NCBI GenBank assembly: GCA_963785725.1
Contig: CAWAWS010000003.1
Location: 480,001 to 544,000, forward strand
From: an uncultured delta proteobacterium
GTDB lineage: Bacteria > Myxococcota_A > Polyangia > Palsa-1104
DNA length: 64,000 nt
Direction: 5' to 3'
Shown here: one piece after another, positions 1 to 17,746 of the stretch
Layout: each line of letters starts with the position of its first letter
How positions within the stretch are numbered: position 1 is the stretch's first letter
Translations under genes and position numbers: made by a program
Notes under the pieces: generated by a model
The model's input: only the letters and a program-made list of their open reading frames with translations
Database searches by the model: none
What the model was told of the DNA's origin: nothing

Positions 1-920
1 TCGGTTTGCAGCGTCCCCGTTGGCATCTCGTAACGTGCTTCGAGGGTGTGGCGAATCTCGGCAATGGTGCGCGAGCCGTCACAGATGTGCCAGATCGCCG
101 CGCCCGAAGCGTTGAGCGAGATCGCGTCCGCGCGCCCGGGAATCTCCAGGAACAGCGAGCCCAAGAGCTGGCCCTCCCGCACGTCCGCTCGTTTGCATGG
201 TCGGAGAGACGCCAGCTCATCGCCTTCGTCATCGGCTGGCGCGGCACCGTCGGCGGCATCGCGGCTCGTCGCGAGGTCCGCCACCGCGTGAGGGACACGC
301 GCCTCGGCCGCGGCGATCACATAGGCGACCTCGTCCGCGTCGCCGCGCGCGCCGTCGCAGCGCGCCGTTTCCGCGCGAATGAGGCTCATCAGCTCGAGCC
401 AGCGCGCGACGATCTTGCGCAGATCGGTCGAGTGGATGAGGACCGGCAGCCGAACCGCCGCCAGCTCGAGCTGGCGATCGACACAGAAACGGTCGAGGAA
501 CGAAAATGCCGCGCCCAAACCGAACGGGCCCGCGCCCGCCGGACGGTCGAGCCAAGCGCCGGCCTTGGCCTGACCGGGCCGTATCTCATCCGCCATGGCG
601 GCGCGGAAGTCGAAGGTCGGCTCGACGAGCAGGATGGTGCCCTGCACGTCCTCGGTGAAGAGCCATTCGAGCAGCCCTGCCGCTCTTTGATACGGCGGAT
701 AGACGTCGTCCGTGTAGGGATGCGGTGACCAGGACATCGTCGTGACGACGCGCGCGTGCGGAGACGACGGCAGCGGCCGCGACGGGTCTTGCGCGACGAG
801 CCGAACGAGCTCGCCCGGCTGCCGCACCCGATGCCAGGAGCGCGCGAGGCGCCCAACCTGTCCGTCGACGTCGCCGGCGGCGTCGTCATGGGACGACGTG
901 CAGAAAACGGTGTAAATCAC
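1..920 (-). CDS. SERGT/HPAT-like (GT96/GT95-like) glycosyltransferase domain fused to C-terminal PqqD/RRE; 3' end beyond window edge
   Basis: Not in the ORF track because it has no stop in the window. Manual translation from GTG 920 (overlaps upstream stop): VIYTVFC...SWHRVRQPGELVRLVA...WSPHPYTDDVYPPYQRAAGLLEWL...IHSTDLRKIVARWLELM...LNASGAAIWHICDGSRTIAEI. Clear paralog of 10154-11272. Confidence 0.8.
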   Translation of the reverse strand, partial: MIYTVFCTSSHDDAAGDVDGQVGRLARSWHRVRQPGELVRLVAQDPSRPLPSSPHARVVTTMSWSPHPYTDDVYPPYQRAAGLLEWLFTEDVQGTILLVEPTFDFRAAMADEIRPGQAKAGAWLDRPAGAGPFGLGAAFSFLDRFCVDRQLELAAVRLPVLIHSTDLRKIVARWLELMSLIRAETARCDGARGDADEVAYVIAAAEARVPHAVADLATSRDAADGAAPADDEGDELASLRPCKRADVREGQLLGSLFLEIPGRADAISLNASGAAIWHICDGSRTIAEIRHTLEARYEMPTGTLQT

Positions 921-1945
921 GCCTTCGCCTCTCCCTCGACGCGGCGCCGTCGTGCCGTCGCGCCGCCCGAAAAGTGGCCCCAGCCGAAGGTCGCGCGCGG
1001 GTCGACCTCGGTGCCGCGATGGAACCACATGGTGACGGCGAAGCGGCTGTCGGCGAACGCGCCCGATGGACAGCGCACCGGCAGCGCTTCGTGCAGCTCG
1101 TCGCTCGGGAACACGACCAGGCGATTGGCCAGCGGCGCGATGGCCGTGAAGGTCTCGGCCGCAGTCCGCGCGCCCGCGGCCTCGACGCGGTCATAGAGAC
1201 GCAGCTCGCCGCCGGCGAATCCGCGCGGCTGGCGATGCAAATAGTAAATACAGGTGAGCAGGCGCGGGATATCCGCAGCCTCGTCGGTGTGCGTCTTGAA
1301 ATAGTAGCCGTCCTTGGCCGCCGTCAGCTGCGACTCGAAGGCGGCGAGCGGGAAGATGGGCGTGCCCAAAATCTTGCCGAGCAGCGGAAGCCAAATCAGC
1401 AGCCGATTCTCGAGCAGCCGACTGTGCACCGACTCTTGGAAGTTCAAGATCGCCTGATTTTGTCGTACGCCGGGCTCGTAGGCGCTCACCGTTCCCGCTT
1501 GGAAGTGCGCTTCGGAGAAGAGCGCATAAGCGAGCAGCTCGTCATGCTCCGGCACGCTCAGGAAATCGTCGACGACGAAGAAGCGCGGACGGCACAGGCG
1601 CAGGGTCGGGCCGCTCTCGACTCCATCGTCGCGCCACCGCTCGTCTCGCGCGTCCATTGCCTGGCTCGGTGGCCGGAGAAGCTCGCCCTTCCTTGCGCCG
1701 CCAGGCCTGGGCGGCTCGAGGACGACGGGCGGATGGCTCTCGATGGAGACGAGGTTGGCCGTCTGAAAAGACCAGGCGACGCGGCCACCCGCGAGCGGAA
1801 GCTGGACGAGCTGGTTCTCGGCGTTGCGATTGGCGAGCGCGCCGAAGAGGACGGCCAGCTCCGGCGCGCCTTCTTGCAGGCTCACTTGGCGCGTGTCGCC
1901 GCCGGCCAAGCGAATCGTGAGCGTGATTTCGCGGGGCGCCGCCAT
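917..1945 (-). CDS. 2OG-Fe(II) oxygenase, prolyl-4-hydroxylase-like, with uncharacterised N-terminal domain
   Basis: HxD (FKTHTDE), GGELRLYD, NRLVVFPSDELHEALPV and DSRFAVTMWF motifs. Start MAAPREIT is coupled to the upstream stop. Paralog of 11269-12255. Confidence 0.85.
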   Translation of the reverse strand: MAAPREITLTIRLAGGDTRQVSLQEGAPELAVLFGALANRNAENQLVQLPLAGGRVAWSFQTANLVSIESHPPVVLEPPRPGGARKGELLRPPSQAMDARDERWRDDGVESGPTLRLCRPRFFVVDDFLSVPEHDELLAYALFSEAHFQAGTVSAYEPGVRQNQAILNFQESVHSRLLENRLLIWLPLLGKILGTPIFPLAAFESQLTAAKDGYYFKTHTDEAADIPRLLTCIYYLHRQPRGFAGGELRLYDRVEAAGARTAAETFTAIAPLANRLVVFPSDELHEALPVRCPSGAFADSRFAVTMWFHRGTEVDPRATFGWGHFSGGATARRRRVEGEAKA

Positions 1946-3942
1946 CACGCCGCGGCCTCCCAACCCGCCTCGCTGAAGCGCGCGACGATTCGCGCCGCTT
2001 CGTCCGGCTGGCTGAAGCGCAGCTGCGCCGCGGGCCGCTGTTCGACGAGCCGGCAGAGGTGGTTGACGGCGCGATCGCGGTCGATGCGAAAGTCGATCGA
2101 GGCGCCGATCAGCGCGGCGACCGCCTCCGCCGGCGACATGGGCGCGATGCGACTGTCGCGCGTATACAGCGGCGTTCTCTTGGCGATCACCAGTCGCTCG
2201 AGCGGAGCGGCAAAGCGGCCGGGCCCGGCTGCGCCTTCGGGCTGCGAGCGCGCGCACAGCGGCACGGCCACCAGGTCGGCCGCGCGGATGGCGATGACGC
2301 TGCGATCGATCAGCCGAAAGCCTTGCGCCTCGATGGCGCGCACCAACGCGTGGGTGGGATCGGCGATCTCACCCGCGATCACGAGGCCGCGCCCGCCTTT
2401 GACGAACGCCGCCGCCGAAAGCCACGTGTAGTTGTGGCGCGCGCGGGCGTAGATGCGGGCGATGTACCGCTTGAGCACGAGCGGCAGCTCCTTCGCGCCG
2501 CAGGCTATCTTCTGATCGCTGCCACGCTGCGCGATGCTGTAGGTCGTGTCGTGGCCGACGTCGAGGTTGGCGATCACGTTGCGCGCCTGCGTGGTCGCGT
2601 CCGCGCCCAGCTGCACGGAGAGCTGCTTGAGCAAGGCGGCGTCTTTGCACCACACGGCCACCTGCAGATCCTCGAAGCCGACATACACGACCGCTTCGTC
2701 TTTGGGCGCGAGCGCGGGCGCGCTCGGGCGCGCACCCAAAGACGCCGGCTTTGCCTCCGCGACCTTGACGAGCGCGCCCGTCTCGAGGACCTCGGGCAAG
2801 AGGAAGCTCTCGGGCCACTCGCGCATCCAGGCCGGGTTGAGCTGCTGGCTGACGCGATTCCACGAATAGGGCCCGGCGAAATCCTCGACCATCTCGCCGC
2901 GCTCGAGCAGGATGCACTCGCTGACGGCGTGGCGGCCGCGCTCGAGCTCCGCCTCCGCGTCCGGCAGCTCGTTCCACAAGTAGCGAAAGGCCTCGGGCTT
3001 GCCGCGATTGCCGCGATAGCGCTGGATCAGCCCGGTGAACGTGCTCGTCATCGTGCCCATGAACTCTTTCGCTTCCGCCGCCACGAGCTGCGACAGATAG
3101 GCGAGGCTCAAGCTGTCGCTGCGCGGCAGCTTGAGCAGCTCGCGGCCGTAGTGATCGAGGATGTGCCAATCGATGAAGTAGTGATGCGGATAGGCCTGCT
3201 TGATCGCCGTGAAGAAGGGATCGTCGCGCTCGTCGGTGAGGATGACCAACGGCTCCCTGCGGCTGAACAGCGGCTCCATCGCCTCGAGGGCTTCGGCCGG
3301 CTTGCGGTCGAGCGTCGTCACGCCGTAGGTGACCTTGAAGTCGCCGCGGCGGAAATGCACCGCGTTGAAGGCGCCGAGGTCGCGCGCCACGCGCTGGGCG
3401 AGCTCGGCGAACGGGCGCTTCGCCTGCATGTTCCGCAAGAGCCGGTACACCGATCGCCGCGTCTCGTGATCGAAATAGAATTGATAGCTGTAATAGCCGA
3501 GATTGGAGCGCTTATTCGCCTGCTCGGACAGCGCCAGCACGGGGATTTGCTCGTGCTCGCCCGTCACCGTCACCCAGTGGCGCCGACTGCGTGCGAAGGC
3601 GCGCGCATCGGACGAGGACACGTCGAGCGTCTTCGGAAAGTAGAGCGCGCAGTCCCACAGCGAGTGCTCGGTGAGCTCGCGGCGCGCCAGCCCAGCGAGG
3701 TCGACGGCGTCCGGCTCGACCCACGCCACCGGCATCTCGATGAGGTCGGTGACCCGGCTCGGAACGGCGTTGTCGACGCGACCGTCATAGCTGACGAGGT
3801 TGGCGGGTGGCGGAATATTGCCGTCGAGCACCAAGAGGCGATTGGTCAGATGCGCCAGGATCACGCCGATTTCGATCGACATGATGCCGTTGGACAGCCC
3901 CGAATTTCCCGACTGATAATTGGTGTACAGGAGATAGCGCAT
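1945..3942 (-). CDS. O-fucosyltransferase-like (GT-B) protein with C-terminal degenerate HPr-kinase-like domain
   Basis: SGLSNGIM..AHLTNRLLVL, FNAVHFRRGDF, VILTDE and EFMGTMTSTFT match the O-FucT pattern. C-terminal WLSAAAFVKGGRGLVIAGE resembles HPrK-related kinases but lacks an intact Walker A. Confidence 0.75.
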   Translation of the reverse strand: MRYLLYTNYQSGNSGLSNGIMSIEIGVILAHLTNRLLVLDGNIPPPANLVSYDGRVDNAVPSRVTDLIEMPVAWVEPDAVDLAGLARRELTEHSLWDCALYFPKTLDVSSSDARAFARSRRHWVTVTGEHEQIPVLALSEQANKRSNLGYYSYQFYFDHETRRSVYRLLRNMQAKRPFAELAQRVARDLGAFNAVHFRRGDFKVTYGVTTLDRKPAEALEAMEPLFSRREPLVILTDERDDPFFTAIKQAYPHHYFIDWHILDHYGRELLKLPRSDSLSLAYLSQLVAAEAKEFMGTMTSTFTGLIQRYRGNRGKPEAFRYLWNELPDAEAELERGRHAVSECILLERGEMVEDFAGPYSWNRVSQQLNPAWMREWPESFLLPEVLETGALVKVAEAKPASLGARPSAPALAPKDEAVVYVGFEDLQVAVWCKDAALLKQLSVQLGADATTQARNVIANLDVGHDTTYSIAQRGSDQKIACGAKELPLVLKRYIARIYARARHNYTWLSAAAFVKGGRGLVIAGEIADPTHALVRAIEAQGFRLIDRSVIAIRAADLVAVPLCARSQPEGAAGPGRFAAPLERLVIAKRTPLYTRDSRIAPMSPAEAVAALIGASIDFRIDRDRAVNHLCRLVEQRPAAQLRFSQPDEAARIVARFSEAGWEAAA

Positions 3943-4590
3943 CTATTCCCTCGTCGCCGTGCCTGCAGCAGTCGCGGGATGGTAGTGAACGAAGATTCCC
4001 GCGTAGAAATCGCCGTCGAGCGGATAGGGGCGACCATGCGCCAGACGCACGCCTTCATAGAGGACGTATTCGCCCGGCTCCATGTCGACTTGGTGCACTC
4101 GACCGTCGAGGCCCTCGATGTGCAGCGGCCAGCGCGACTCGAGCGCGTGATCGATGCAGATCGTCGAGCTGACGAAGTGCGGCTGGCGATCGACATGGTT
4201 GTACAGGAAGGTTCCGCGTTGATAGCAGCGAATGCCGTAACAGGCCGAGAGCTCGAGCAGCCTACCCGCCCACGCTTCGTGCAGCGGCTTGAGCTCGTCG
4301 GCGAGCTGCGCGTTGAACGCGTCCTCTTGGAATAGGAGCGCCGGAATCACGTCTTGGCGAGCGCTGCGAATTTCGTCGGAGGCGCGCTCGGGACGAAACT
4401 GCGCCAGGTTGTCGCGCAACTGCGTCACCAGTCGTGCGTGGATGGCCGGCGCCAGTCGCCCCTTTTGGAAGCCGAGCCCGAGACTGGGCGCCGCGGCCTG
4501 CATCTCTTCGCACTTCTTGCGTAGATACGGCGGCGCCGTCAGCTCCGTCAGCAGCGGCTGCCCCGGCTCGGCTTCGCGCGCGCGACTCAT
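3943..4590 (-). CDS. 2OG-Fe(II) oxygenase-like hydroxylase
   Basis: YGIRCY..LYNHVDR (HxD), WPLHIE, MEPGEYVLYEG..AHGRPYPLDGDFYAGIFVHY. ATG 4590 overlaps the upstream TGA (ATGA). Confidence 0.75.
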   Translation of the reverse strand: MSRAREAEPGQPLLTELTAPPYLRKKCEEMQAAAPSLGLGFQKGRLAPAIHARLVTQLRDNLAQFRPERASDEIRSARQDVIPALLFQEDAFNAQLADELKPLHEAWAGRLLELSACYGIRCYQRGTFLYNHVDRQPHFVSSTICIDHALESRWPLHIEGLDGRVHQVDMEPGEYVLYEGVRLAHGRPYPLDGDFYAGIFVHYHPATAAGTATRE

Positions 4591-5915
4591 GCGTGCTCCT
4601 TCTGAAGGCGCCTCCGCGCGGCGAGGCCGAGGTCGAAAAATCGGCGCTCGAGGTCGGTCTTGGCCGAGGCGCGAAAGCTGGCCAGGTTCTCGGCGAGGAA
4701 GTCGCGATCGGCGAACAGCTGCTTGTTCCACGCCGAGCCCAAGAAGGGGCCGCCGCAGCCGTCGTTGACGTCGGCGTAATAGTGGAAGAACGAGCCGGCG
4801 GCGACCGACTCCTGCTGCGGCACCGGTGTCATGAACTGCGGCGCTTGCAAGAGCTCGTAGTCGACACGATTGGCCGTCAGCGCCATGGCAAAGCAGGCCA
4901 TCTCCGCCATCCACACGCGGCTATCGGGAAGGCCGCCGGTCTTGCCGAGCAAGTAGATGATCTGCGCGAAGCGGAAGCAGTCTTTGATGACCTTGTCGTG
5001 CTTCAAGGTCGCGCCGGTCATGAAGACGGTGACGGCGCCGCGTTTGAGCTCGGTTCGACAGCCGAGCGCACCGAGCAGCTGTTGCAGGTCGATGCCGCTG
5101 TCGTCGTCGCCGCGGCTGAGAAAGCGCGGGTCGCGCATGATCGCGTCCGCGGCCAAGGCATTTCCGACCGGGAACACCTCGCGGTTCAGGTCACCGTACA
5201 AGAAGACGTCGCTGTCCATGAGGCAGACGAGATCAGCGGCAGCGACCCGCGGCGCCATCGCGTTGAGGGCCTCGACGCGGTTGAGCGCCACGTAGCCGCC
5301 ATCATGCGACGAGAAGTCGATCTTGTGGCTGTGCGCGTGGTTTCGTCCCGTGAGCACGCCGACCCCGTAGAGCGAGACGAGACGCGTCAGCGCCGGCGAA
5401 AGCGCCGCATGATCGTTGCACACGACGAGCGTGATGTCCCAGCCGGGCGCGAGCTGACCGACGAGCGACTCGAGCAGAATGCCGAGCTGCCAATGAAAAT
5501 ACGGTTTGTCCTCGACTCCGAAGACGAAGCGCACGCGCGGCCGGAGCGCGACTCCCGTTACCGTGTCGTCCGCGAAGGCCACCTCGTCGGCGAGCGCGCG
5601 CTCGGATGAAGGCAGCGCCAAATCGATCATGCCGAGCTGCGCAAAGTGGAACAGCGCCTCGGTGATATCGGCCAGGATGCGAACGTTTCTTCCGTCGTAG
5701 CGCGTGCGCAGCGCGTCGAGCATGTCGAGCGCCGTGTGCGCACCGTCGCAGAGCTGCCAGACCGCGGCCGCCGACTCGTTCAGCGCCAGCGCGACCTCAC
5801 CATCGGGCGACAAGACCACGAGCTCGTTGGCGACGGGAAACAACGAAAAGCCCAGCTTCGCTTGCGGTCGCGCGCTCGAACGGCCGCGAGCACGCGCGCC
5901 CATGTCGTTCATCAA
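4587..5915 (-). CDS. N-terminal PqqD/RRE fused to hydroxyproline O-arabinosyltransferase (HPAT/GT95)-like domain
   Basis: RRE: LALNESAAAVWQLCDGAHTALDMLDALRTRY. GT motifs PYFHWQ, GGYVALNR, LMDSD (DxD), WMAEMACFAMA, FFHYY and WNKQ parallel recalled plant HPAT motifs. Confidence 0.75.
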   Translation of the reverse strand: MMNDMGARARGRSSARPQAKLGFSLFPVANELVVLSPDGEVALALNESAAAVWQLCDGAHTALDMLDALRTRYDGRNVRILADITEALFHFAQLGMIDLALPSSERALADEVAFADDTVTGVALRPRVRFVFGVEDKPYFHWQLGILLESLVGQLAPGWDITLVVCNDHAALSPALTRLVSLYGVGVLTGRNHAHSHKIDFSSHDGGYVALNRVEALNAMAPRVAAADLVCLMDSDVFLYGDLNREVFPVGNALAADAIMRDPRFLSRGDDDSGIDLQQLLGALGCRTELKRGAVTVFMTGATLKHDKVIKDCFRFAQIIYLLGKTGGLPDSRVWMAEMACFAMALTANRVDYELLQAPQFMTPVPQQESVAAGSFFHYYADVNDGCGGPFLGSAWNKQLFADRDFLAENLASFRASAKTDLERRFFDLGLAARRRLQKEHA

Positions 5916-5991: not shown

Positions 5992-7005
5992 TTAAAGTAT
6001 CCAGCCGCGCGCCTGCGCCTCTTCGAACGTCACCGCGAGCGCCCAATCGGCCTCCGAGTGAATGGTCACGGGATCGGGATTCTTGCCGGTGAAGACATCG
6101 GGGTGCGCGCGTTTCCGCTGAAAATCGAAGCCGGAGTACAGCTCGTATTGGCGCAGCGTGCGCGCGCGTCCGAGGCTGTAGGGCCCGAGCGTGTGCCCCT
6201 CGTTCGCGTAAACCAGGCGGCGCAGTCGCTCCAGCGCCGTGGCGTTGCGCCGGCGAACGACCTCGTCGCCATGCTCCCAATGACGACGCGGCGGCGCGCC
6301 CCGGTGCAACATGTGCCAAGCCAGCACCTCGGTCGGCAGGAAGAAGTCGTATCCCCAGGTATAGCTGCGAACCGAGACGCTCAGCTCTTCGCCCCAATAA
6401 TAGTGGTCGGGATCCTGCGGCACCTCGACGTTCCATTGACCGCGCGTAAAGACGAAGCCGCCGTTGACGACGCGGGTTCTGCCCGGCTTTTGCTGGTTGG
6501 GCTCGCCGAAGCCGAACCACGGCGCCCAGCCGCCTTGCTCGGACCAGTCGCTGACGCGCGTCGTCGGCACGCCCATGTCCAAGCGGCGCTGCAGCGAGCC
6601 GTCGTCATCGTAGTAAAAGAGCGGCGAATTCATGGTCAGGATCGGCTTTTCGGCCGGGAGCGACTCGAGCATCTGGACCAAGCGCGCATCCCAGCCGGGC
6701 TCGAGCTTCATATGCGAATCGATCTGCAGCGTATAGGGCTCGCCGCGCCACTGCGACTGGGCCAGATTGCGCGCCCACGGTCCGCCTTGGCTCTCTTGGA
6801 CGGTGCGATCGATGAAGCGAAAACGCACATCGCGACGGAACCGCGACAGATCGAGCGGCGCGGCCGGATCGGCCTGCCAGCAGATGCCGAAGCGGAGCGC
6901 GGCCGGATGGCGCGCCATCGCCAGGCAGTCGTCGAGCGTGCGCGGCAGCTCCGGGTCGGCGTAGGCGGCAATGGCGACGAAGATCCGCTGGTCCGTCTTC
7001 ATCAC
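5992..7005 (-). CDS. Skp1-hydroxyproline N-acetylglucosaminyltransferase-like (GlcNAc family, GT60-like)
   Basis: IFVAIAAYADPE, LRFGICWQ, SQGGPWARNLAQSQWRGEPYTLQIDSHM, GGFVFTRG, YYWGEELSVSVRSYTWGYDFF, LGRARTLRQYE. Confidence 0.85.
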   Translation of the reverse strand: MMKTDQRIFVAIAAYADPELPRTLDDCLAMARHPAALRFGICWQADPAAPLDLSRFRRDVRFRFIDRTVQESQGGPWARNLAQSQWRGEPYTLQIDSHMKLEPGWDARLVQMLESLPAEKPILTMNSPLFYYDDDGSLQRRLDMGVPTTRVSDWSEQGGWAPWFGFGEPNQQKPGRTRVVNGGFVFTRGQWNVEVPQDPDHYYWGEELSVSVRSYTWGYDFFLPTEVLAWHMLHRGAPPRRHWEHGDEVVRRRNATALERLRRLVYANEGHTLGPYSLGRARTLRQYELYSGFDFQRKRAHPDVFTGKNPDPVTIHSEADWALAVTFEEAQARGWIL

Positions 7006-7084
7006 GCGCGCTCGAGCTTACACCACCGAGCGGCATGATAGGCTGCAGCGTCTACCGCTCGCCAAGCGACGAGGACGACCTTCG

Positions 7085-9182: not shown

Positions 9183-10154
9183 CTATTGGGACGTCGCTCG
9201 ACGTCTTCGGCCGCGGCGCTCGTTGCGTTCGCTGCCCTCGCTGAACCAGGCCACCGTTTGGGCGAGCCCGCGCTCATACGAGACCGTGGGCTCCCAGCCG
9301 AGCAGTCGGCCCGCGCGGCTGATGTCGGGGCAGCGCTGCCGCGGATCGTCTTGCGGCAGCGGATGAAACTCGAGCCGCACGTCGCTGCCGACGGCGCGGC
9401 GCACGTCTTCGGCGACCGACAAGATGGTGCGTTCGTCCGGGTTGCCGAGATTGACGATGGGAACGACCTCGGCGCTCGACTTGGAAAACTCCATGAGCGC
9501 GCCTAAGCCGGCGACGAGATCATCGACGTAACAGAAGCTGCGCGTCTGGCTGCCGTCGCCATAAATGGTGAGCGGATCGCCGCGCAGCGCCTGCGTGATG
9601 AAGTTCGGGATGAGCCGTCCGTCGCCGCTGGCCATGCGCGGTCCGTAGGTGTTGAAGATGCGCGCGATGCGCACCTCGGTGCCGTATTGCGCGGCCCACG
9701 ACGTGGCCATCGCTTCGCCGCAGCGCTTGCCCTCGTCGTAGCAGCTGCGCACGCCGACGGGATTGACGCGGCCGTGATATTCCTCGCGCTGCGGGCTCAC
9801 GTCGGGATCGCCATAGACCTCACTCGTCGACGCGATGAGGAGGCGAGCACCGACCTCGCGCGCGCATTCGAGCGCGTGCATCGTGCCCATCACCGCCGTC
9901 TTGATGGTGCGAACGGCGTTGCGTTGGTAATGCACGGGCGACGCGGGGCAGGCGAGGTGCCAGATACGGTCGACCTCGAAGTGGAACGGCTCGCAGACGT
10001 CACCGCGAACGAATTCCACCGCGTCGGTGTCGAGGTTCGCACGGCTGCCGGTGAACAAGTTGTCGAAGCAGATGACCTCCTCATGCGCGCGCACCAACGC
10101 GTCGCACAGGTGCGACCCGATGAACCCAGCGCCGCCGAGGACGAGATGCCGCAT
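9183..10154 (-). CDS. uxs: UDP-glucuronate decarboxylase (UDP-xylose synthase), SDR family
   Basis: GGAGFIGSHL, HLACPASPVHYQ, ASTSEVYGDP, RSCYDEGKR, RIFNTYGPRM, GSQTRSFCYVDD, DDPRQRCPDI. Confidence 0.9.
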   Translation of the reverse strand: MRHLVLGGAGFIGSHLCDALVRAHEEVICFDNLFTGSRANLDTDAVEFVRGDVCEPFHFEVDRIWHLACPASPVHYQRNAVRTIKTAVMGTMHALECAREVGARLLIASTSEVYGDPDVSPQREEYHGRVNPVGVRSCYDEGKRCGEAMATSWAAQYGTEVRIARIFNTYGPRMASGDGRLIPNFITQALRGDPLTIYGDGSQTRSFCYVDDLVAGLGALMEFSKSSAEVVPIVNLGNPDERTILSVAEDVRRAVGSDVRLEFHPLPQDDPRQRCPDISRAGRLLGWEPTVSYERGLAQTVAWFSEGSERNERRGRRRRATSQ

Positions 10155-11272
10155 CAGAGCCGCTCGAACCTGAGCGCGCCGATCTGCTCGAGGCGCCGCA
10201 AGACGGCCTCGGTATCGGGCTGCAGGCTGCCTTGCGGGAGCTCGAAGCGCGATTCGAGCGTTCGGTGGATGTCGGCGATCGTGTGCGTGCCGTCGCAGGC
10301 TTCCCAGATCGCGGCGCCGGAAGAGTCGAGCGCCAACGTGTCCGCGCGGCCGGGAATCTCGAGGAAGATCGAGCCGTAGATCTTGCCCGTGCGCACGCCG
10401 TCGCCGCGCAGCGGCCGCATGAACGTGAGCTCGTGTCGATGCGCGCGCCGTTCGCGCAGCTCGGCCAACAGCGTCAAGAGCTCGCGGCCCGTGCCCGCCT
10501 TTGCCGACAGCGGATCGACCGGATGATCCAAGCTGCCATCGCCGCTCGCATCCCACACGATCGCGCCGCTCGCCGACTCGACGGCGCGCTGGCAGTCGAT
10601 GATCGGCGCCGCGCTCTCGATGGCATGCGTGTCCGTCGCGAGCTCGGCCGCTGCGTGCGGAATGCGCGCCTCGGCGGCGGCGATCAGATAAGCCACGTCG
10701 TCGGCCGCGCGCAGCGGACCGTCTTCGGTGAGCGCGGTCTCGGCGCGAATCAGGCTCATCAGCTCCAGCCAGCGGGCCGCGATCTTGCGCAGATCGCTCG
10801 AGTGGATGATGAGCGGCAGCTTCACCGCGTCCAGCTCGAGCGCGCGATCGACGCAAAACTGGTCGAGGAACCCAAAGTCTCGGCCGAGGTCGAACGGACC
10901 GTCGCCGCGCGGGCGCTCCGGCCACGCCATGGCTTTGGCTTGGCCCGCTCGCGCTTCCTCGGTCACCGCCGCGCGAAAGACGCAGCGCGGCTCGACGAGG
11001 AGGATGGTCCCATCGACTTGCTCGCCGAACAGCCATTCGAGAATCGCGGCCGCTTTGTGGTACGGCGGATAGACGTCGCCCGTGTACGGATGCGGCGACC
11101 ACGCCGTCGTCGCCACGACGCGCGCGTGCCGATGCGTCGGCGCCGGCGGCGCTGGAGGGCGCGCGACCAGGCGCACCAGCTCGCCCGGTTGCCGCACGCG
11201 CGCCCACGAGAGCTCGAGCAGCTCGCACTGCCACTCGGGCTCACCGAAGCTGCAAACGACCGTGTGGATCAC
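10154..11272 (-). CDS. SERGT/HPAT-like glycosyltransferase domain fused to C-terminal PqqD/RRE
   Basis: IHTV..EWQCELL..QPGELVRL..WSPHPYTGDVYPPYHKAAAILEWL..IHSSDLRKIAARWL..AYLIAAAEA resembles plant peptidyl-serine galactosyltransferase domains. C-terminal LDSSGAAIWEACDGTHTIADI is an RRE. GTG start overlaps the upstream stop. Confidence 0.75.
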   Translation of the reverse strand: MIHTVVCSFGEPEWQCELLELSWARVRQPGELVRLVARPPAPPAPTHRHARVVATTAWSPHPYTGDVYPPYHKAAAILEWLFGEQVDGTILLVEPRCVFRAAVTEEARAGQAKAMAWPERPRGDGPFDLGRDFGFLDQFCVDRALELDAVKLPLIIHSSDLRKIAARWLELMSLIRAETALTEDGPLRAADDVAYLIAAAEARIPHAAAELATDTHAIESAAPIIDCQRAVESASGAIVWDASGDGSLDHPVDPLSAKAGTGRELLTLLAELRERRAHRHELTFMRPLRGDGVRTGKIYGSIFLEIPGRADTLALDSSGAAIWEACDGTHTIADIHRTLESRFELPQGSLQPDTEAVLRRLEQIGALRFERL

Positions 11273-12255
11273 GAGCCCACGCTGCGCAGCTGCGGCGCGA
11301 CCACGCCGCAAAAGAAGTGGCCCCAGCCGAAGCGTGCCTGCGGATCGACCTTGTCGCTGGCGTGCAGCCAGACGGTGATGGCAAAGCGGCTGTCGGCGAA
11401 TTCGCCCGATGGACAGCGCACGGGCAGCGCTTCGTGGAGCTCATGGCTGGCGAACACGACCAGCCGATTGGCCACCGCCTGCACCGGCACGAACGACTCG
11501 GCGGCCCTGACCTCGGCGCCGCCTTCGACGGAGACGGCGTCGTAGAGCCGCAGCTCGCCGCCGCTGAAACCGCGCGGCTCGCGGTGCAAATAGTAGATAC
11601 AGGTCAGCGCCCGCGGCGTCGTCGGCGATTGGTCGGCGTGCGTCTTGAAATAGTGGCCGTCGCGCGCCGCGGTCAGCTGCGACTCGAGCTGCGCCAGCGG
11701 AAACACCGGCAGCCCCAAGCGCTTGGCGATGAGCGGGAACCAAATGAGCAGCCGATTTTCGAGCAGCCGACTGTGCACCGACGCGCCGAAATCGAGGATG
11801 ACCTGATTCTGCCGCACCTCGGGCGTGTAGGACTCGGTCACGGTGCCAGCCTCGAACTGCGCCTCGGAGGCGAGCGCATAGGCGAGCAGCTCGTCGTGCT
11901 CTTGTGGGCTCAGGAAATCGTCGATGATCACGCAGCGAGGACGACGCACGCTCAGCGACGAAGCGGAACGCGTGGCCTCGGGCTGAGCCGCCGCGTTTGG
12001 CTGCGCTGGGCTCAGCCGTTCGGGAGCGAGCACCACCGGCGGCTCACTCGTCACGGAGACGATCTTCGCCGTTTGAAACGACCAGGCGCGGCGGCCGCCG
12101 TCGAGCGGCAGCTGCAGGAACCGGTTCTCAGCCCACGGCGAGGCGAGCGCGGCGAACAGCGCCAGCAGCTCGGGCGCATCTTCGCGCAGCCGCACTTCAC
12201 GTGCTTCGCCGCTGACCAGGTTGATCGTGAGCGTGATGTCGCGCAGTGTCCCCAT
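11269..12255 (-). CDS. 2OG-Fe(II) oxygenase, prolyl-4-hydroxylase-like, with uncharacterised N-terminal domain
   Basis: FKTHADQ, GGELRLYD, ELHEALPV, DSRFAITVW. First gene downstream of the Pro-rich precursor. Confidence 0.85.
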   Translation of the reverse strand: MGTLRDITLTINLVSGEAREVRLREDAPELLALFAALASPWAENRFLQLPLDGGRRAWSFQTAKIVSVTSEPPVVLAPERLSPAQPNAAAQPEATRSASSLSVRRPRCVIIDDFLSPQEHDELLAYALASEAQFEAGTVTESYTPEVRQNQVILDFGASVHSRLLENRLLIWFPLIAKRLGLPVFPLAQLESQLTAARDGHYFKTHADQSPTTPRALTCIYYLHREPRGFSGGELRLYDAVSVEGGAEVRAAESFVPVQAVANRLVVFASHELHEALPVRCPSGEFADSRFAITVWLHASDKVDPQARFGWGHFFCGVVAPQLRSVGS

Positions 12256-12351: not shown

Positions 12352-12954
12352 TTACGAAGTGGTCGCGCGCAGTCGAACGCGCGCAGTCGCGCGCGCCGCG
12401 CCGAGCGCGATGAAGCCGACCGAGCTCGACCCGCAGTCGGGCGCGCTCGCCATTCCCAACACCGGTGACACCGTTGGCGCCAGGGTCGGCGCGGGGACGC
12501 AGTGGCCGGCCATGGTCGGATGCGCGGTCGGCGCTCGCGTCGGCGGCGCGGTCGGCGCTCGCGTCGGTGGCGCAGTCGGCGCTGGCGTCGGCGGCGCCGC
12601 TGTCGGCGGCGCGGTGGGCGCCCGCGTCGGCGCCAGGGTCGGCAAATTGATCACGGAATGGTCGTCGCCGGCGCCACCGTAGTAAGCCAGCGCCGTGCCG
12701 GGCTTCAAGATCGTGCCCAGCCCCGCCGCCAGCTGCGCCATCGGCAGCGATAGGACCACCGGCGCCACCCACATCTTCTTCAGCGCGTCGCGGCGCGATG
12801 GATCGGCCGCCGGCTCGTCCGGCTTGGCGTCGGCCGCCTGCGCGTGCGCCGGCTCGGACGACTCCGCCGCGTCGTGCTGCTCCAGCTTCCTCTTGAGCTC
12901 CTCGAGCTCGGCGAGCAGCTGCTCTTTGGTCTTCTTGTCGCTACCGTCGCTCAA
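12352..12954 (-). CDS. Putative precursor/substrate protein: leader plus Tat-like signal plus Pro-Thr-Ala repeat core
   Basis: TTG start with GAGGT RBS 8 nt upstream. SRRDALKKMWVAPVVLSL, TALA|YYGG, 13 PT dipeptides, hydrophobic/basic C-tail. Lies between a standalone RRE and a P4H-like gene. Confidence 0.7.
   Translation of the reverse strand: MSDGSDKKTKEQLLAELEELKRKLEQHDAAESSEPAHAQAADAKPDEPAADPSRRDALKKMWVAPVVLSLPMAQLAAGLGTILKPGTALAYYGGAGDDHSVINLPTLAPTRAPTAPPTAAPPTPAPTAPPTRAPTAPPTRAPTAHPTMAGHCVPAPTLAPTVSPVLGMASAPDCGSSSVGFIALGAARATARVRLRATTS
12514..12645 (-). repeat. Imperfect tandem coding repeat (24-nt unit, APTAPPTR)
   Basis: Repeated cgcggtcggcgctcgcgtcggcgg-type units within the precursor ORF. 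Confidence 0.8.
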
Positions 12955-12972: not shown

Positions 12973-13278
12973 TCACGGAGTGATTTCGACGAGCGCGTGC
13001 AAGCTCAGATAGCGCAGAAACGTAACCACATCGCGCTCGAGCACCGAACGATCCGGCGCGACGTAGTCACTTTCCAGCTGCTCGCACAAGGCGGCAATCG
13101 TCGACGCTTGCTCGAGGTGTTGCCAAATGGTCTTACCAGCTTCGTCGAGGCCGACATAGAGGCCGCGCTCGACGCTCATGAGAATGTGCCGGCCTCCGAC
13201 GTCGGCCGAAAGGAAGGGCTTGCGCGCGACTCGCGACGCCAAGCTCACCCCCCCGCTGCCAGCGCCCGACCAGAGCAT
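12973..13278 (-). CDS. Standalone PqqD-family RiPP recognition element (RRE)
   Basis: ADVGGRHILMSVERGLYVGLDEAGKTIWQHLE..IAALCEQLESDY..LERDVVTFLRYL. Start may instead be GTG 13248. Confidence 0.85.
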   Translation of the reverse strand: MLWSGAGSGGVSLASRVARKPFLSADVGGRHILMSVERGLYVGLDEAGKTIWQHLEQASTIAALCEQLESDYVAPDRSVLERDVVTFLRYLSLHALVEITP

Positions 13279-13356
13279 CCTGCTAGTGAAGGTACGCCAT
13301 GTCCTTGTGGTCAACAAGCGCGAACTGGCCTAGCATCGCGGGCACTGACTCGAATC

Positions 13357-14478
13357 ATGCTGCGTTCGCTCGATGATGTCCTCTCGCCGCTCACCGTCGG
13401 AGAATTCGCGGCGGCGGTCGACGGCAGGAAGCGCTTCCACGTGCAGACGACCGATCCGCGGCGCGCGGAGTCGCTGCTGCCGTGGCCCGAGATCGAGGCG
13501 ATGATCTCGATGCGTCGCTTCGAGAACATGAAGGTGATGCACAACGGCATGGTGGTGCCGCCGCAGCTGTACAACGCGGACGTGAGCGCGCTGCACGACG
13601 TGCTCTTGCAAGGCGCCAGCATCGTCGCCACGCGCGTCGACGCGGATGTGCCGCAGATCCAGTGGCTGGCGACCGCGATCGAACGGCAGCTCGGGCGCGA
13701 GGTCGGCGTCAATGCGTATCTGAGCTTCTCGGAGGGCGGCGCGTTCAAGCCACACTGGGATCGGCACGATGTGCTGGTCTTGCAAGTCCACGGCGCGAAA
13801 ACGTGGAGCATCTGGAACGCGACGCTCGACAATCCCGTCGAGATGTCGCGCTTCGCCAAGCACGACATCACGGACGCGCCCTGTCAGTCGCTCGAGCTGG
13901 CGGCCGGCGACGTCCTTTACATCCCGCGCGGAGAGCCGCACGCCGCGTCGGTGTCGAGCGGCGCCTCGGTGCATCTGACGTTCGGGATCGAGCGCATCAC
14001 CGGCGTCGACGCGTTACAGCGGCTGCAACAGGCGGCCGGCGAAGATGCCTTCTTGCGCGCGGATGTGCCCACCAAAGAGCGGCCCGCGCAGCTGCACGCG
14101 TTCGAAGCCGAGTGGAAGGCGCGCTTGCACCGCCTGGTCGACGCGACTGACCTAGCGCAGGTTTTGCACGACAGCGACCTGCAGCGACCGCCGGTTCGGC
14201 AGGCCTCCTTGTCGACGTTCGCGGAGCCGAGCGATCTCGTACGGCTCACGTTGCGGCGGCGCGTTCCGCTCGATGGCGGCACGGTGACCATTGGCGGCGT
14301 CGCGCACCCGCTCTCGGCCGCGGCCATCGACCTCTTGCGCCGCTTGTTCGAGCGCGACTGGCAGACGCGCGCTGCGCTGACGCAGGCGCTGGCGCCGCGT
14401 CACGAGCCCTCAGCGGTCGAGCGCGCGCTCCGCGAGCTCGCGCGGCTCGGCTTCATCGCCACGCATCGTCCGATATAG
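13357..14478 (+). CDS. JmjC/Cupin_4 (ribosomal-oxygenase-like) 2OG hydroxylase
   Basis: VNAYLS..GAFKPHWDRHDVLVLQVHGAKTW..GDVLYIPRGEPHAA..SVHLTFG, with a winged-helix-like C-terminus. Confidence 0.85.
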   Translation: MLRSLDDVLSPLTVGEFAAAVDGRKRFHVQTTDPRRAESLLPWPEIEAMISMRRFENMKVMHNGMVVPPQLYNADVSALHDVLLQGASIVATRVDADVPQIQWLATAIERQLGREVGVNAYLSFSEGGAFKPHWDRHDVLVLQVHGAKTWSIWNATLDNPVEMSRFAKHDITDAPCQSLELAAGDVLYIPRGEPHAASVSSGASVHLTFGIERITGVDALQRLQQAAGEDAFLRADVPTKERPAQLHAFEAEWKARLHRLVDATDLAQVLHDSDLQRPPVRQASLSTFAEPSDLVRLTLRRRVPLDGGTVTIGGVAHPLSAAAIDLLRRLFERDWQTRAALTQALAPRHEPSAVERALRELARLGFIATHRPI

Positions 14479-15378
14479 CGGCGCGATGCGTTCGGCGACG
14501 AGCTGTCGCTCCGCTTCGGACAGCGGCGCGTGCGCGCGGGCGCGGAACGGCTGCTCGCTCTGCGCCTTGGAGTCGAAGCGCGCTCGCTCGCGCATGCGTT
14601 CGATGGCCGACGGCGCGAAGGTCAGCTGCGCATGGGGCGCGACCTCATCCCAGACGGCATCGGGCAGCCGCGCGTAATCGACCGTGCGCAAGGAAAGCTT
14701 GGCGGCGTGCGCGGCCGAGAACAGCGCTTCGATGGCGTGCAGCCGAAAGCGCGCCGCCGACATCGCCCGCGCCTCGTCGACCGTGAGGCCGAACAGCGCC
14801 AGCGCCGGATCGCCCGTCTCGCGCCAGCTCAGCCATGCCGCCGGCTGTGCGGCGTGCGAGGCCAGCACCCGCAACGGATCGCGCTGCAGCCAGATCATCG
14901 GCGTCGCCGGAAACGCGCGCTGAATCAGGTTCACCGCCAGCACGTTCCAGCTCGTGAGCTTGAGGACGAGGTGGCGTGCGCCGGCGCGGTTGCGGCCGAG
15001 CGCGCGCACGACCAAGCGAAACAGCTCCACCTTATCGTGCTGATCGAGGCGCGCCGCGACGATGTTGTTGACGACGTTGACTTCCGAGAGCACGACATAA
15101 TCGGGCAGCGCCGCCAACATCTGCGCCAGCAAGGTCGACCCGCAGCGCGACACTTGAAAGATGAACAGCGACGGCTCGAGCGTCGGCCGCTCGTCGAGCG
15201 CGCGCAGCACGTCGACTCCGGTCAGCGCCTTGAGCTTGTCATTGGGCAGTCGCGCCAGCGTGTCGCGAAAGAACGGCTCGACGAAGCGCACGTCGCGCAG
15301 ATCGGCCCAGGTGAACAGCGGCTCGGGCAGGAATCGCACCGCGATGGGCGTGCAGTGCGCAGCGTCGTGCACGGTCAC
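14410..15378 (-). CDS. Sulfotransferase-family P-loop protein
   Basis: FIFQVSRCGSTLLAQML, VLSE, LKLTSWN, LQRDPLRVLASH. Confidence 0.7.
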   Translation of the reverse strand: MTVHDAAHCTPIAVRFLPEPLFTWADLRDVRFVEPFFRDTLARLPNDKLKALTGVDVLRALDERPTLEPSLFIFQVSRCGSTLLAQMLAALPDYVVLSEVNVVNNIVAARLDQHDKVELFRLVVRALGRNRAGARHLVLKLTSWNVLAVNLIQRAFPATPMIWLQRDPLRVLASHAAQPAAWLSWRETGDPALALFGLTVDEARAMSAARFRLHAIEALFSAAHAAKLSLRTVDYARLPDAVWDEVAPHAQLTFAPSAIERMRERARFDSKAQSEQPFRARAHAPLSEAERQLVAERIAPLYRTMRGDEAEPRELAERALDR

Positions 15379-15396
15379 GAGGTCAGCCGCCCGGCC

Positions 15397-15807
15397 TCAA
15401 ATCATCATGCCCGGCCGGATCAGGCGCGCGAGCTGCAGCTCGGCGAAGCGCAGTCGCTGACGCGGCTCGAGCATGCGACAGATGTCGAGCGTGCGCTCGA
15501 AGCCGATCTCGTTCAACGTCTGACGCTGCTCGCGAATCCTCTCGCTGGTGGCGCGTATCTCCGCCTCGTTCAGCGCGACCAAGTTCAGCTTCTGTTGCGC
15601 CACCAGCCGCTCCAGCTCCTCGCGCGCATGGCCGTAGCGCTCGAGGTCGCGGTCGAAGATGGCTTGCAGCTGCGCGCTCTGCGCCGGGGCGAGATCGAGC
15701 TGGTCGAGGATGGAGCGCCCCTTCTTCTTCGGTTCGCGCCGCGGCTGTGGTGCCGTTGGGACGATCTCACCCATCAGCCGAGCCAAGAACTTACGCCTCT
15801 CCATCAC
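15397..15807 (-). CDS. Spy/CpxP-like helical protein
   Basis: LDLAPAQ and MLEPRQR resemble LTxxQ motifs; helical composition. Confidence 0.5.
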   Translation of the reverse strand: MMERRKFLARLMGEIVPTAPQPRREPKKKGRSILDQLDLAPAQSAQLQAIFDRDLERYGHAREELERLVAQQKLNLVALNEAEIRATSERIREQRQTLNEIGFERTLDICRMLEPRQRLRFAELQLARLIRPGMMI

Positions 15808-16369
15808 CCGATTTTCTCACGGCGGGCGCCCAATCGCAAATGAGGTGCACGCGCGGCGCGACGCCGTCGTTGCTCGCCGAGTGCTGGCGCCGGTTGTTGA
15901 TCTCGACGACGTCGCCCGGCTTCAAGTGGCGCAGCTCGCCGCCGACGCGGAACAGCGCCTGCGCGTTGGTGACGACCGCGACGTGCAGCCGATGGCTGTT
16001 GGCCAGCGAGAAGCCGGCATCGACGTGCGGCGGGATCGAGCCGCCCGGCCGCAAGCGCACCAGCAGCGAGCGAACGATCCAGCCCGCATCGCCGAAGCAG
16101 CCGGCGATCACGCCGTGGATCGGCTCGATGACGTGCGCAAAACGCGCGTAGCTCTCGCGCCGCGTCGGCTCGGCATGGCGAAAGTCGGCGTCGAAGAGCA
16201 GCGGAATGGTCTGCGTGTCACGATGCGTCGGGAAGGTCTCCTGGCGAAAGCGATCCGCCAGCCAATCCTCATCGGACAATCTCGACAGCTCGGCACAGAG
16301 CGCCGCGATGTCGACGGTGCCGCGCTGGAAGTAGTTCCCTGCGAAGTCCACGACGGCTGCTACAATCAT
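15791..16369 (-). CDS. Aspartyl/asparaginyl beta-hydroxylase domain protein
   Basis: VRLRPGGSIPPHVDAG..HRLHVAVVTN..VEINNRRQHSASNDG..RVHLICD. Confidence 0.85.
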   Translation of the reverse strand: MIVAAVVDFAGNYFQRGTVDIAALCAELSRLSDEDWLADRFRQETFPTHRDTQTIPLLFDADFRHAEPTRRESYARFAHVIEPIHGVIAGCFGDAGWIVRSLLVRLRPGGSIPPHVDAGFSLANSHRLHVAVVTNAQALFRVGGELRHLKPGDVVEINNRRQHSASNDGVAPRVHLICDWAPAVRKSGDGEA

Positions 16370-16380
16370 GTCTCGTTCGC

Positions 16381-17100
16381 GTGTTCATTACAAAGTCATT
16401 CGTCTTCATCCATCTGCACAAGTCGGGCGGGACGTTCGTAAACCGCTTTCTGCAGCGCTTCTTTTCCGACGGACAGCGGCTGAATTGGCATCTGCCGCGC
16501 GCTTTTCTACCGCGCGACTTCCGCGCCCTGCCCGTCTTGGGCGTCGTGCGCAATCCGTGGGACTACTACGTCTCGTGGTTCACGTTTCAGTCGTCGATGC
16601 GCCCGCAGCAGCAGAACGCGCTGTACCGCGCGGTCTCGGACGACGGCACGCTCGCTTTTTCACCCGCGATCGCCAACCTCGTGAAGCTGTGCGACGACCG
16701 CGAGCGCTGGCAGGCCCTCCGCGCGCAGCTGCCGGACGCGTTCGTCGACCACGGCATCAACCTCACCAAGCGCTGCATCGATCCGCTGCTCGGCTCGGGA
16801 CGCGGCTTTTATTCGTTCCTGTTTCAGCGCATGTTCGCGCCGCCGGAAGGTGGCGATGGAGGCGGCGTGACGTTCGCGCGCATGGAGTCGCTGCGCGGCG
16901 ATCTGCTGCAGTTCCTCGGCGACGTCGGCGTCGAAGTTACCGACGAGATGCGCGACTTCCTGTTGCGCTCGGAGAGAGTGAACGTCACCGAGCACGCGCC
17001 GTTTGCCACCTATTACGACCCGGCCTTGCGCGACGAGGTCGGCGCGCGCGACCGCGAGGTCATCGAACGCTTCGGCTACCGGTTCAAAAGCGATAGTTGA
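16381..17100 (+). CDS. Sulfotransferase family 2-like protein
   Basis: FVFIHLHKSGGT, VVRNPWDYYVSWF, RMESLRGDL, YYDPALRDEV..D..VIERFGYRF. Confidence 0.75.
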   Translation: MFITKSFVFIHLHKSGGTFVNRFLQRFFSDGQRLNWHLPRAFLPRDFRALPVLGVVRNPWDYYVSWFTFQSSMRPQQQNALYRAVSDDGTLAFSPAIANLVKLCDDRERWQALRAQLPDAFVDHGINLTKRCIDPLLGSGRGFYSFLFQRMFAPPEGGDGGGVTFARMESLRGDLLQFLGDVGVEVTDEMRDFLLRSERVNVTEHAPFATYYDPALRDEVGARDREVIERFGYRFKSDS

Positions 17101-17746
17101 AGCGCTCCACGTCTTCGGCGTAGCGACGGGCGACGAGCGCGCGCGCGCGCGGCCCGTAATATTGCGTGTAGTGACCGTGCTTGGTGCGGTTGAGGAACGG
17201 CAGCTCGATGGCGGGAAAGCCGGCGCGTTGGCAGATGTGCTGCCAGTCTTCGCTGACGCGCTCGATGCGTCCCAAGAAGTCGGGCAGCCAGCGGCCGGCA
17301 TCGTCGCGAAAGAAGCTGCACTGCGAGCGCAAGTGAACATCCAACAGCGCGTCTTCGCTGTGCGCGACCACTTCGACGAAGTCGTCGAACGTCATCTCGA
17401 GGCGAAAACGGCCGTCCTGCTGGAACCAGGGCGGCAGCGCGACCAGCCCTTTTTCACGATTGTCCGTGAAGGTGAACGCGTACGCCGACAAGAGCCGCGC
17501 CCACGGATTGCGCACGAAGCCGAAGCGAAAATGATCGGTGAGCGCATGGACGGCCATCTTGTCGAAGCCGGGAATCTCGGTCTTGAAGCGGTGCCGCGCC
17601 GGCCCGTCGCCGCGTTCGCTGATCGGGTGGCCGGCGAGCTTGGCCGCGACATAGGCGAGCGAGGTCGACGCCACCTTGGTCTGCGCGAGCAGCAGCGCGC
17701 GATACGGCGGAATGATCACGATGCCGTTGTAGGGCTGCATGCTCAT
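17084..17746 (-). CDS. Sulfotransferase family 2 protein
   Basis: TKVASTSL, FGFVRNPWARLLSAY, HLRSQ, DFLGRIE, YAEDVERFNYRF. Confidence 0.8.
   Translation of the reverse strand: MSMQPYNGIVIIPPYRALLLAQTKVASTSLAYVAAKLAGHPISERGDGPARHRFKTEIPGFDKMAVHALTDHFRFGFVRNPWARLLSAYAFTFTDNREKGLVALPPWFQQDGRFRLEMTFDDFVEVVAHSEDALLDVHLRSQCSFFRDDAGRWLPDFLGRIERVSEDWQHICQRAGFPAIELPFLNRTKHGHYTQYYGPRARALVARRYAEDVERFNYRF

Follow-up and report, generated by a model that had tools for sequence, protein, structure and literature searches.

A predicted RRE-guided cassette for proline hydroxylation and O-glycosylation of a Pro-Thr repeat precursor in an uncultured member of the Polyangia

What a bacterium makes of a repetitive, Pro/Thr-rich protein that is encoded amid oxygenases, glycosyltransferase-like proteins and peptide-recognition domains is the question raised by this locus. 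The window, i.e., the whole stretch of DNA that was analysed, comprises 64,000 nucleotides from an uncultured delta proteobacterium of the Polyangia (C3:480001-544000, where C3 denotes contig CAWAWS010000003.1) and has a GC content of approximately 67%. An earlier note, made from the sequence letters, had proposed a pathway in which the precursor of a peptide that is made on ribosomes and modified post-translationally (RiPP) is delivered to its enzymes by RiPP recognition elements (RREs), and every gene that it named was found where it had been placed. Based on sequence comparisons, the most probable answer, to which we assign a probability of roughly 0.6, is RRE-guided proline hydroxylation and O-glycosylation of hydroxyproline (Hyp) and/or Thr in the cytoplasm, followed by twin-arginine translocation (Tat) export and signal-peptidase cleavage. 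The RRE-guided O-glycosylation of the precursor, which this reading shares with a Thr-only alternative discussed below, is highly probable.

Gene content and conservation of the cassette

The cluster extends from approximately C3:477180, outside the window, to window position 17746. The genes that carry the argument are listed here (window coordinates unless a C3 position is given; GT, glycosyltransferase; 2OG, 2-oxoglutarate).

12352..12954, minus strand: precursor L, 200 aa, the only family member found in this genome by the precursor profile
12754..12798, minus strand: leader motif of L, from S53-R54-R55 to W62-x-x-P65-x-V67
12470..12642, minus strand: (xxPT)n repeat core of L, candidate modification sites
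4587..5915, minus strand: F (core), N-terminal RRE and GT95/96-clan GT-A domain; PqqD 2e-11
3943..4590, minus strand: E (core), 2OG/Fe(II) oxygenase-like, no Pfam family
1945..3942, minus strand: D (core), O-FucT-like domain and degenerate HprK-like kinase domain
11269..12255, minus strand: K (core, copy 1), PHD/PhyA-type prolyl-4-hydroxylase-like, with an unnamed N-terminal domain; PF13640
917..1945, minus strand: C, second copy of K, 59% identical; PF13640
10154..11272, minus strand: J (core, copy 1), GT95/96-clan GT-A domain with degenerate motifs and a C-terminal RRE
1..920, minus strand, ending at C3:479937 outside the window: B, shorter second copy of J, coupled to the second GT60
5992..7005, minus strand: G (near-core), GT60-family GlcNAc-transferase-like; PF11397 5e-44, 151 bits, cut-off 21
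C3:479023-479940, just outside the window: second GT60; PF11397 1e-42, 147 bits

The distribution of the cassette was traced through J, for which 99 homologues were found among 8,000 scored candidates and 53 were aligned. A single-sequence search of genome contigs returned no match; the search with the alignment of the 53 homologues succeeded and yielded 36 genome and 56 metagenome loci. The GT domain of J is held by 53 loci, 28 of which have at least 6.5 kb upstream, and the removal of three duplicates leaves 25. Among these 25 loci, the Pro/Thr-rich precursor, whose recurrence in homologous clusters had been anticipated, is found in 24, as are E, D and K; F is found in 23 and a G-type GT60 in 18. 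In addition, a second GT60 follows J in 26 of the 33 loci with enough downstream DNA. The order precursor-F-E-D-K-J-GT60 is common to records from Polyangia, Binatia, Nitrotoga and gammaproteobacteria; the order from F to J is also kept in an Acidobacteriota record, and in the alphaproteobacterial records it occurs with one GT60 placed before J. The closest named homologous loci belong to Polyangiaceae/Polyangia metagenome-assembled genomes (64-79% protein identity), and a named isolate, Tepidamorphus sp. 3E244 (L016), is among the carriers and keeps the J and kinase motifs intact. Among the 60 relatives of this genome that were searched, only RRE-length matches and no full-length F were found; the distribution is consequently patchy, which would fit horizontal transfer.

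Since K/C and J/B (54-65% identical) are duplicates, a simpler cassette is present in the window in rearranged and partly duplicated form. The translational coupling claimed for many genes is seen as overlaps of 1-4 bases at six junctions (K/J, J/I, F/E, D/C, C/B and B/second GT60), and genes E and D abut. The statement that the cluster continues past base 1 was also correct: the DNA upstream encodes the rest of gene B, the second GT60, an epimerase with a frameshift, a GT-like protein and a Cys-rich protein of 2,200 aa. Finally, 39 of 150 distant homologues were scanned for fused domains, and the combinations HPAT+GT60+2OG (P0118), O-FucT+HPAT+GT60 (P0133, P0191) and HPAT+PqqD+2OG (P0127) were found; by joining these activities in one protein, such fusions support a single pathway independently of gene order.

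The precursor leader and the RRE-bearing proteins

Precursor L starts at a TTG codon with a ribosome-binding-like GAGGT upstream and is laid out as a helical N-region, an S-R-R twin-arginine-type motif, a WxxPxV RRE-type motif, an AxA-like site, the (xxPT)n core and a tail. After the leader, L contains 13 PT dipeptides, with 10 of the 12 spacings being exactly 4, and the repeat core shows a weak match to the PT-repeat family PF04886. Over 28 precursors, a PT spacing of 4 occurs in 231 of 330 intervals, compared to a mean of 3.8 and a maximum of 10 after shuffling. This core is (xxPT)n and not extensin-type Ser-Pro4, and the likeness to extensin that had been supposed is to this extent overstated.

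The leader was modelled by a hidden Markov model (HMM) seeded with 14 sequences, which then recovered the remaining precursors (approximately 90 to 330 aa across homologues). The alignment of 28 precursors shows no variation at R55, W62 and P65, and WxxPx[LVIFA] is present in all of them; the RRE-binding motif of lasso-type leaders is given as [Y/W]xxPx[L/V/I/F/A] in the accessible text of PMC13381572. The twin-arginine position, located 6-11 residues before the Trp, is RR in 26 precursors and KR in 2, with Ser or Thr ahead of it in 27 of 28, and an AxA-like site lies downstream of WxxP in 24 of 28, a count that has no control for chance. From these motifs, L is predicted to be a Tat substrate, and a TatC gene is present in the genome.

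Some precursor genes depart from this layout. In one locus (L037:5200-5950), the precursor is split by a frameshift, with the leader in one frame and PPTGG repeats in another, and the cassette of L012 has two precursor genes (4161-4667 and 17611-18090), one with a hydrophobic tail and one without. Small open reading frames beside other RRE proteins (L076:1231-1653, L077:40-354 and L084:330-491) show a similar RR...WxxP leader and different cores, one of them carrying His-x-Asp repeats; this leader type may serve other uncharacterised RiPP classes.

PqqD/PF05402 scores above its cut-off in four proteins, M being standalone and F, J and B fused; M also matches NF033536 (1e-11, below cut-off). 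In fold comparisons, the RRE of F matches TbiB1 with a Z score of 12.8 (rmsd 2.0, 84 residues aligned) and its GT-A domain reaches 15.3; for J, the RRE reaches 12.6 (rmsd 1.9, 85 residues aligned) and the GT-A domain 15.5. Both RREs thus have the fold of lasso B1 proteins (TbiB1/TfuB1). When the F RRE was folded together with the leader, the score was 0.36 versus 0.02 for the best control, with a contact agreement of at least 93% and a partner pLDDT of at least 52. The mark of this test is reached by 116 of 157 solved pairs and 2 of 215 mismatched pairs, but passes scoring 0.60 or less comprise only 18 of the 157 solved pairs and both mismatches. The support for binding is accordingly weak and may echo solved lasso complexes; with regard to the earlier proposal that the RREs bind the leader, the leader has the known motif, and folding lends the binding weak support.

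The GT domains of F and J are GT-A folds of the GT95/96 clan, as had been supposed, and those of the GT60 enzymes are assigned by PF11397. The HPAT Pfam model gave no match to window F, J or B at E<=0.1, and PF23452, which represents the GT95/96 clan, matches 40 of 53 J-family members at E<=0.05, window J not being among them. On the other hand, the GT domain of F aligns with a 16-domain HPAT/SERGT-like profile at an hhalign probability of 97.5 (E 5e-12, 241 columns). The link of J to this set is circular because the set was found with the profile of J, and a direct comparison of the F and J GT-domain profiles was not significant (probability 2.9). Window F and J thus reach the clan through the HPAT/SERGT-like set and their homologues and not through direct Pfam matches. 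The J family resembles two-domain SERGT-like proteins, to which we presume P0163 to belong, at least as much as HPAT. A PDB sequence search with the GT95/96-clan domains returned no match, and fold searches gave only generic GT-A neighbours.

The F family keeps YxxWQ, DxD, WxxEM, HY and WxK (12 motif residues) in 28 of 28 members. In contrast, window J and B retain none of the six clan motifs (N, DxD, W, EM, H and K; 0/6), and all six are intact in only 3 of 40 J-family rows, namely the alphaproteobacterial L016, L018 and L022. If these motifs are catalytic, as their conservation and knowledge of GT-A enzymes suggest, F is the best candidate for an active leader-guided transferase, and J and B are probably pseudo-enzymes or scaffolds. 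Of the three RRE-fused GT-like proteins described earlier, all three carry the fusion and F carries the intact motifs.

D was expected to be an O-FucT-like enzyme, and the similarity is seen, but it is weak: PF10250 matches at 3.8e-4 (20.6 bits, below the curated cut-off of 31.5) and TIGR04352 at 5.8e-5. Elsewhere, fusions with J-like domains contain O-FucT domains whose scores rise to 93 bits. In the D family, HxRRGDF is invariant (36/36), and Walker A is intact in 3 of 36 members (L016, L022 and L037). An active kinase in this genome was considered for D and rejected, as Walker A is lost in the window copy. Two states of the cassette appear to exist, one with an active J and kinase and one, the window type, with a degenerate J and kinase and an extra GT60; the alphaproteobacterial clusters have no second GT60. 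The pattern is imperfect, since L045 and L048 have a degenerate J without an extra GT60 nearby.

The tails of the 28 precursors are hydrophobic in 11, PVELxxF-type in 6 and neither in 11, a count that includes window L and in which the L003 precursor was entered without its tail. The hydrophobic or PVELxxF-type tails of many homologues suggest surface attachment. The tail of window L, with two Cys, is weakly hydrophobic and has no clear membrane anchor, which is atypical compared to many homologues; IPTL-CTERM matches are weak and occur in 2 of 28 tails, window L not among them. These features bear on a reading in which a small glycopeptide or phospho-glycopeptide is released, like the linear RiPPs of LPP clusters, and no surface glycoprotein is made. 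An RRE, an HprK-like kinase and signal-peptidase processing are LPP cluster logic (PMC13381572, accessible text), the alphaproteobacterial copies combine an intact Walker A with short, tail-less precursors, and the window precursor lacks a clear anchor. Against it stand the precursor lengths, the 17 of 28 hydrophobic or PVELxxF-type ends and the loss of the kinase motif in 33 of 36 members, and we regard a released small product as quite improbable.

Hydroxylases, GT60 enzymes and the acceptor residue

The sole PDB match of K is 6T8M (7e-9), i.e., Dictyostelium PhyA (PMC7864055), and the K-family iron and 2OG ligands H206, D208, H274 and R290 are present in 46 of 46 rows (three duplicates included). 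An unnamed N-terminal domain of about 85 residues precedes the catalytic part of K and C (window 12000-12255 and 1690-1945, both minus strand); it is also found in longer proteins of L012 and L031 and in the fusion P0118, and Atlas gave no usable name for it (nearest cluster score 0.83). In the E family, H132, D134 and H185 are invariant (29/29). Pfam matched none of its 29 members, PDB sequences gave no meaningful match, and the nearest named Atlas clusters for E are PF13640 (score 0.90-0.91), again with no usable name. Five oxygenase-like genes had been counted in the cluster, and all five are there: C and K (PF13640), N (JmjC), Q (PF05118) and E (invariant H/D/H, no Pfam match). N and Q are not part of the core, N being present in 3 of 25 loci and Q having no homologue in related loci.

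The GT60-like enzyme reported earlier is clear from PF11397 and is joined by the second GT60 outside the window; a PDB sequence search returned no match for G or D. According to the accessible portions of the sources, GT60 was defined from Dictyostelium and T. cruzi enzymes that transfer GlcNAc to Thr/Ser of polypeptides (PMC8724618), and Ser is the residue modified by GT96 (PMC7933510). The pairing of GT60 with a PhyA-like enzyme would fit Hyp glycosylation as first proposed, and Hyp is predicted here to be an acceptor; Hyp is not the only candidate, since GT60 also covers Thr/Ser. A mucin-type pathway may thus be envisaged in which F and the GT60s glycosylate Thr (and Ser) under RRE guidance without any Hyp glycans, and the oxygenases leave free Hyp or act elsewhere, on sugars or other targets. 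Besides the definition of GT60, the presence of Thr in every repeat unit and the close match of the J family to two-domain SERGT-like proteins (P0163 being presumably one) speak for it. However, a PhyA-like enzyme with intact motifs is kept in 24 of 25 loci and coupled to J, and fusions of 2OG domains with HPAT-like and GT60 domains occur elsewhere; this Thr-only alternative is the strongest of those considered and is still unlikely.

The precursor might also be one client or a carrier, with other secreted proteins as the main substrates, for example, the 2,200-aa Cys-rich repeat protein upstream of the window (C3:470397-477065, L001:9397-16065), which has TNFR_c6 matches. Its C-terminus consists of a GC-motif, a hydrophobic segment and a basic tail, which we take to be MYXO-CTERM-like. 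O-FucT-family enzymes act on Cys-rich modules in animals, and of 30 loci scanned, 4 (L014, L015, L051 and L058) have a similar Cys-rich giant beside the cassette. No such giant turned up in the remaining 26, in contrast to the precursor, which almost every locus has; moreover, the precursor profile finds a single match in this genome, and the enzymes look cytoplasmic. That other proteins are the main substrates appears improbable.

The remaining genes of the cluster are the following.

6971..9169, plus strand: H (accessory), multidomain glycosyltransferase-like; PF13524 1e-14; 5 of 25 loci
9183..10154, minus strand: I (accessory, window-specific), NAD-dependent sugar epimerase/dehydratase; PF01370
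12973..13317, minus strand: M (accessory), standalone lasso-B1-like RRE; PF05402 5e-14
13357..14478, plus strand: N (accessory, travels with M), JmjC/cupin oxygenase; PF08007 6e-23
14410..15378, minus strand: O (accessory, travels with M and N in L006/L058 and L044), sulfotransferase-like; PF13469
15397..15807, minus strand: P, Spy/CpxP-like LTXXQ protein; PF07813 1e-5; no homologue in related loci
15791..16369, minus strand: Q, Asp/Asn beta-hydroxylase-like; PF05118 2e-12
16381..17100, plus strand: R (accessory), sulfotransferase-like; PF00685 5e-4, below cut-off
17084..17746, minus strand: S (accessory), sulfotransferase-like; PF03567 2e-17

Several of these genes had been given a larger role. 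The standalone RRE M is present in only 3 of 25 loci and is not core. Gene I, which we take to be UDP-xylose-synthase-like, shows a resemblance only; Pfam places it among NAD epimerases/dehydratases, no NCBIfam model matches at cut-off, and no orthologue above 45% identity occurs in the 25 loci. The epimerase that does recur near cassettes is the homologue of the frameshifted upstream gene (C3:478055-479033), a NAD-dependent enzyme, presumably GDP-mannose 3,5-epimerase-like, with a frameshift near its 5' end that reflects a pseudogene or an assembly error; its orthologues in related (Polyangia-type) cassettes are 74-81% identical. The three sulfotransferase-like genes are present as reported, and a window-type sulfotransferase occurs in 2 of 25 loci. 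Sulfation as a core step was rejected, as the window's three sulfotransferases match 0 of 16 well-flanked loci at 30% coverage. Once six domains from these loci were added as queries, any sulfotransferase-like match was found in only 5 of the 16; sulfation is therefore regarded as optional tailoring.

Other genes near the cassettes complete the picture. The GT-like gene at C3:477180-478052 has no Pfam match and is kept beside the cassette in 6 of 25 loci. In L010, L012, L019, L023 and L055, large sulfotransferase/methyltransferase/GT92 fusions lie downstream of the cassette, and further PqqD-fused GT-like proteins occur near it. Directly 3' of the cluster, genes for two-component sensor kinases and response regulators follow one another (window 17911-25341), with no link to the cluster shown, and window 58001-64000 has a GC content of 56-60% versus about 67% elsewhere, possibly a foreign segment.

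The many accessory GTs, epimerases, methyltransferases and sulfotransferases nearby would also suit a locus for an envelope glycan or exopolysaccharide, with the RREs as generic winged-helix modules and the PT gene as a bystander. The invariant RRE-type leader motif, the fixed position of the precursor gene and the protein-acting enzyme families speak against this, as does the finding, by Pfam, of no flippase or polymerase among the window's cluster genes, and very little credence can be given to it.

Proposed pathway and its relation to known systems

For RRE-guided hydroxylation and glycosylation, the following course may be proposed. In the cytoplasm, the RREs of F and J would bind the WxxPxV motif of the leader, and K and C, perhaps with E, would hydroxylate prolines of the (xxPT)n core; their catalytic motifs are observed, and the substrate is the presumed one. 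F and the GT60s, whose families are recognised, would start the glycans on Hyp and/or Thr by adding the first sugars, and extension or capping would fall to D together with lineage-specific GTs, methyltransferases and sulfotransferases. J and B, degenerate in this lineage, may serve as leader-binding scaffolds for the coupled K/C and second GT60. The same leader would double as a Tat signal, which RRE binding may mask until modification is complete, and the bulky modified protein would be exported and then cleaved by signal peptidase. No cyclase or dedicated peptidase was seen in the scan of 21 cluster proteins, in agreement with the earlier note; that the cassette has no peptidase or transporter of its own would be accounted for by Tat export and signal peptidase.

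Several observations weigh against this reading. Hyp need not take part in the glycosylation, since Thr/Ser transferases fall within GT60 and GT96 has Ser as its acceptor, and bacterial PHD-like enzymes can act on folded proteins, e.g., EF-Tu (PMC7864055, accessible text). K, E, D and the GT60s carry no RRE, the clan motifs of J and B are lost, and the clan link of F is remote, with 0 of 28 family members matching PF23452 directly. For Tat export, the hydrophobic stretch of L is short, contains prolines and lies more than 50 residues from the start; for surface attachment, no exosortase (PF09721) was found in this 88%-complete genome. Eleven of the leader HMM seeds are among the 24 positive loci, the loci and genomes, being related, cannot count as independent trials, and one locus (L017) is a lone J in a genome with a full cassette elsewhere (L009).

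Beyond the pathway itself, a wider proposal is put forward only tentatively, with somewhat less than even odds: that bacteria make Hyp-linked O-glycoproteins in the cytoplasm by a leader-guided line joining the plant GT95/96 clan with the protist PhyA/GT60 pair, that one leader is both the RRE site and an export-gating Tat signal, that in most lineages one clan enzyme became a pseudo-enzyme scaffold as a second GT60 joined, and that a prokaryotic form of eukaryotic Hyp glycosylation may survive in these operons. The cassette would bear on the origin of eukaryotic Hyp glycosylation and on whether RRE logic reaches from small peptides to surface glycoproteins. With a dedicated substrate encoded in the operon, the question of which acceptor and donor the soluble GT95/96-clan and GT60 enzymes use can be tested directly, and a leader-addressable cytoplasmic kit for proline hydroxylation and glycosylation would be useful for glycoengineering.

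Accounts of Hyp O-glycosylation concern plants, algae and protists, and SERGT1/GT96 is said there to be specific to plants (PMC8724618 and PMC7933510, accessible portions). Like plant extensin/CLE glycosylation (P4H, the GT95 enzyme HPAT and the GT96 enzyme SERGT1), the cassette has two PF23452-clan enzymes, a prolyl-hydroxylase-like enzyme and a Pro-rich repeat. Unlike it, the cassette presumably acts in the cytoplasm and not in the secretory pathway, its hydroxylase is PHD-type, its repeats are xxPT and not Ser-Pro3-5, and one of its two clan members is degenerate in most lineages. With the protist Skp1 pathway, it shares a PHD-type hydroxylase (PhyA being the sole PDB match) and GT60 enzymes, presumably in the cytoplasm; that pathway modifies one Skp1 proline, whereas the cassette is bacterial, would be guided by RREs and has a repetitive, leader-bearing substrate that is predicted to be exported. 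Protist mucin-type O-GlcNAc initiation (GT60 pp-alpha-GlcNAc-T) resembles it in GT60 enzymes and Thr-rich repeats and differs in that the cassette has no signal anchor, an operon-encoded dedicated substrate and RRE-bearing partners.

Among bacterial systems, the lasso (TbiB1, TfuB1) and LPP clusters, as described in the accessible text of PMC13381572, share with the cassette the RRE fold, the leader motif and a conserved leader with a variable core, and the LPP clusters also an HprK-like domain, a linear product and probably signal-peptidase-type processing. The cassette differs in RREs fused to GT95/96-clan domains, a twin-arginine motif, a long (xxPT)n core and a mostly degenerate kinase, and the 21 cluster proteins include no cyclase, B2 peptidase, SpI, NTP transferase or MsbA; by its gene content it qualifies as neither a lasso nor an LPP cluster. 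RRE-glycosyltransferase fusions were noted by RRE-Finder and are uncharacterised (PMC7470986 and PMC12710340, accessible portions); in PMC12710340 they are named PF00535, and the accessible portion mentions no hydroxylase, GT95/96/60 or PT precursor. In that of PMC10036551, glycosyltransferases appear only as daptide tailoring genes. No description of this cassette was found in the literature searched, a body with few subscription papers and without the supplements to PMC7470986 and PMC12710340, where these RRE fusions may be listed. With RRE domains in four proteins and a co-conserved precursor of conserved leader and variable core, the cassette is predicted to work like an RRE-dependent RiPP cluster.

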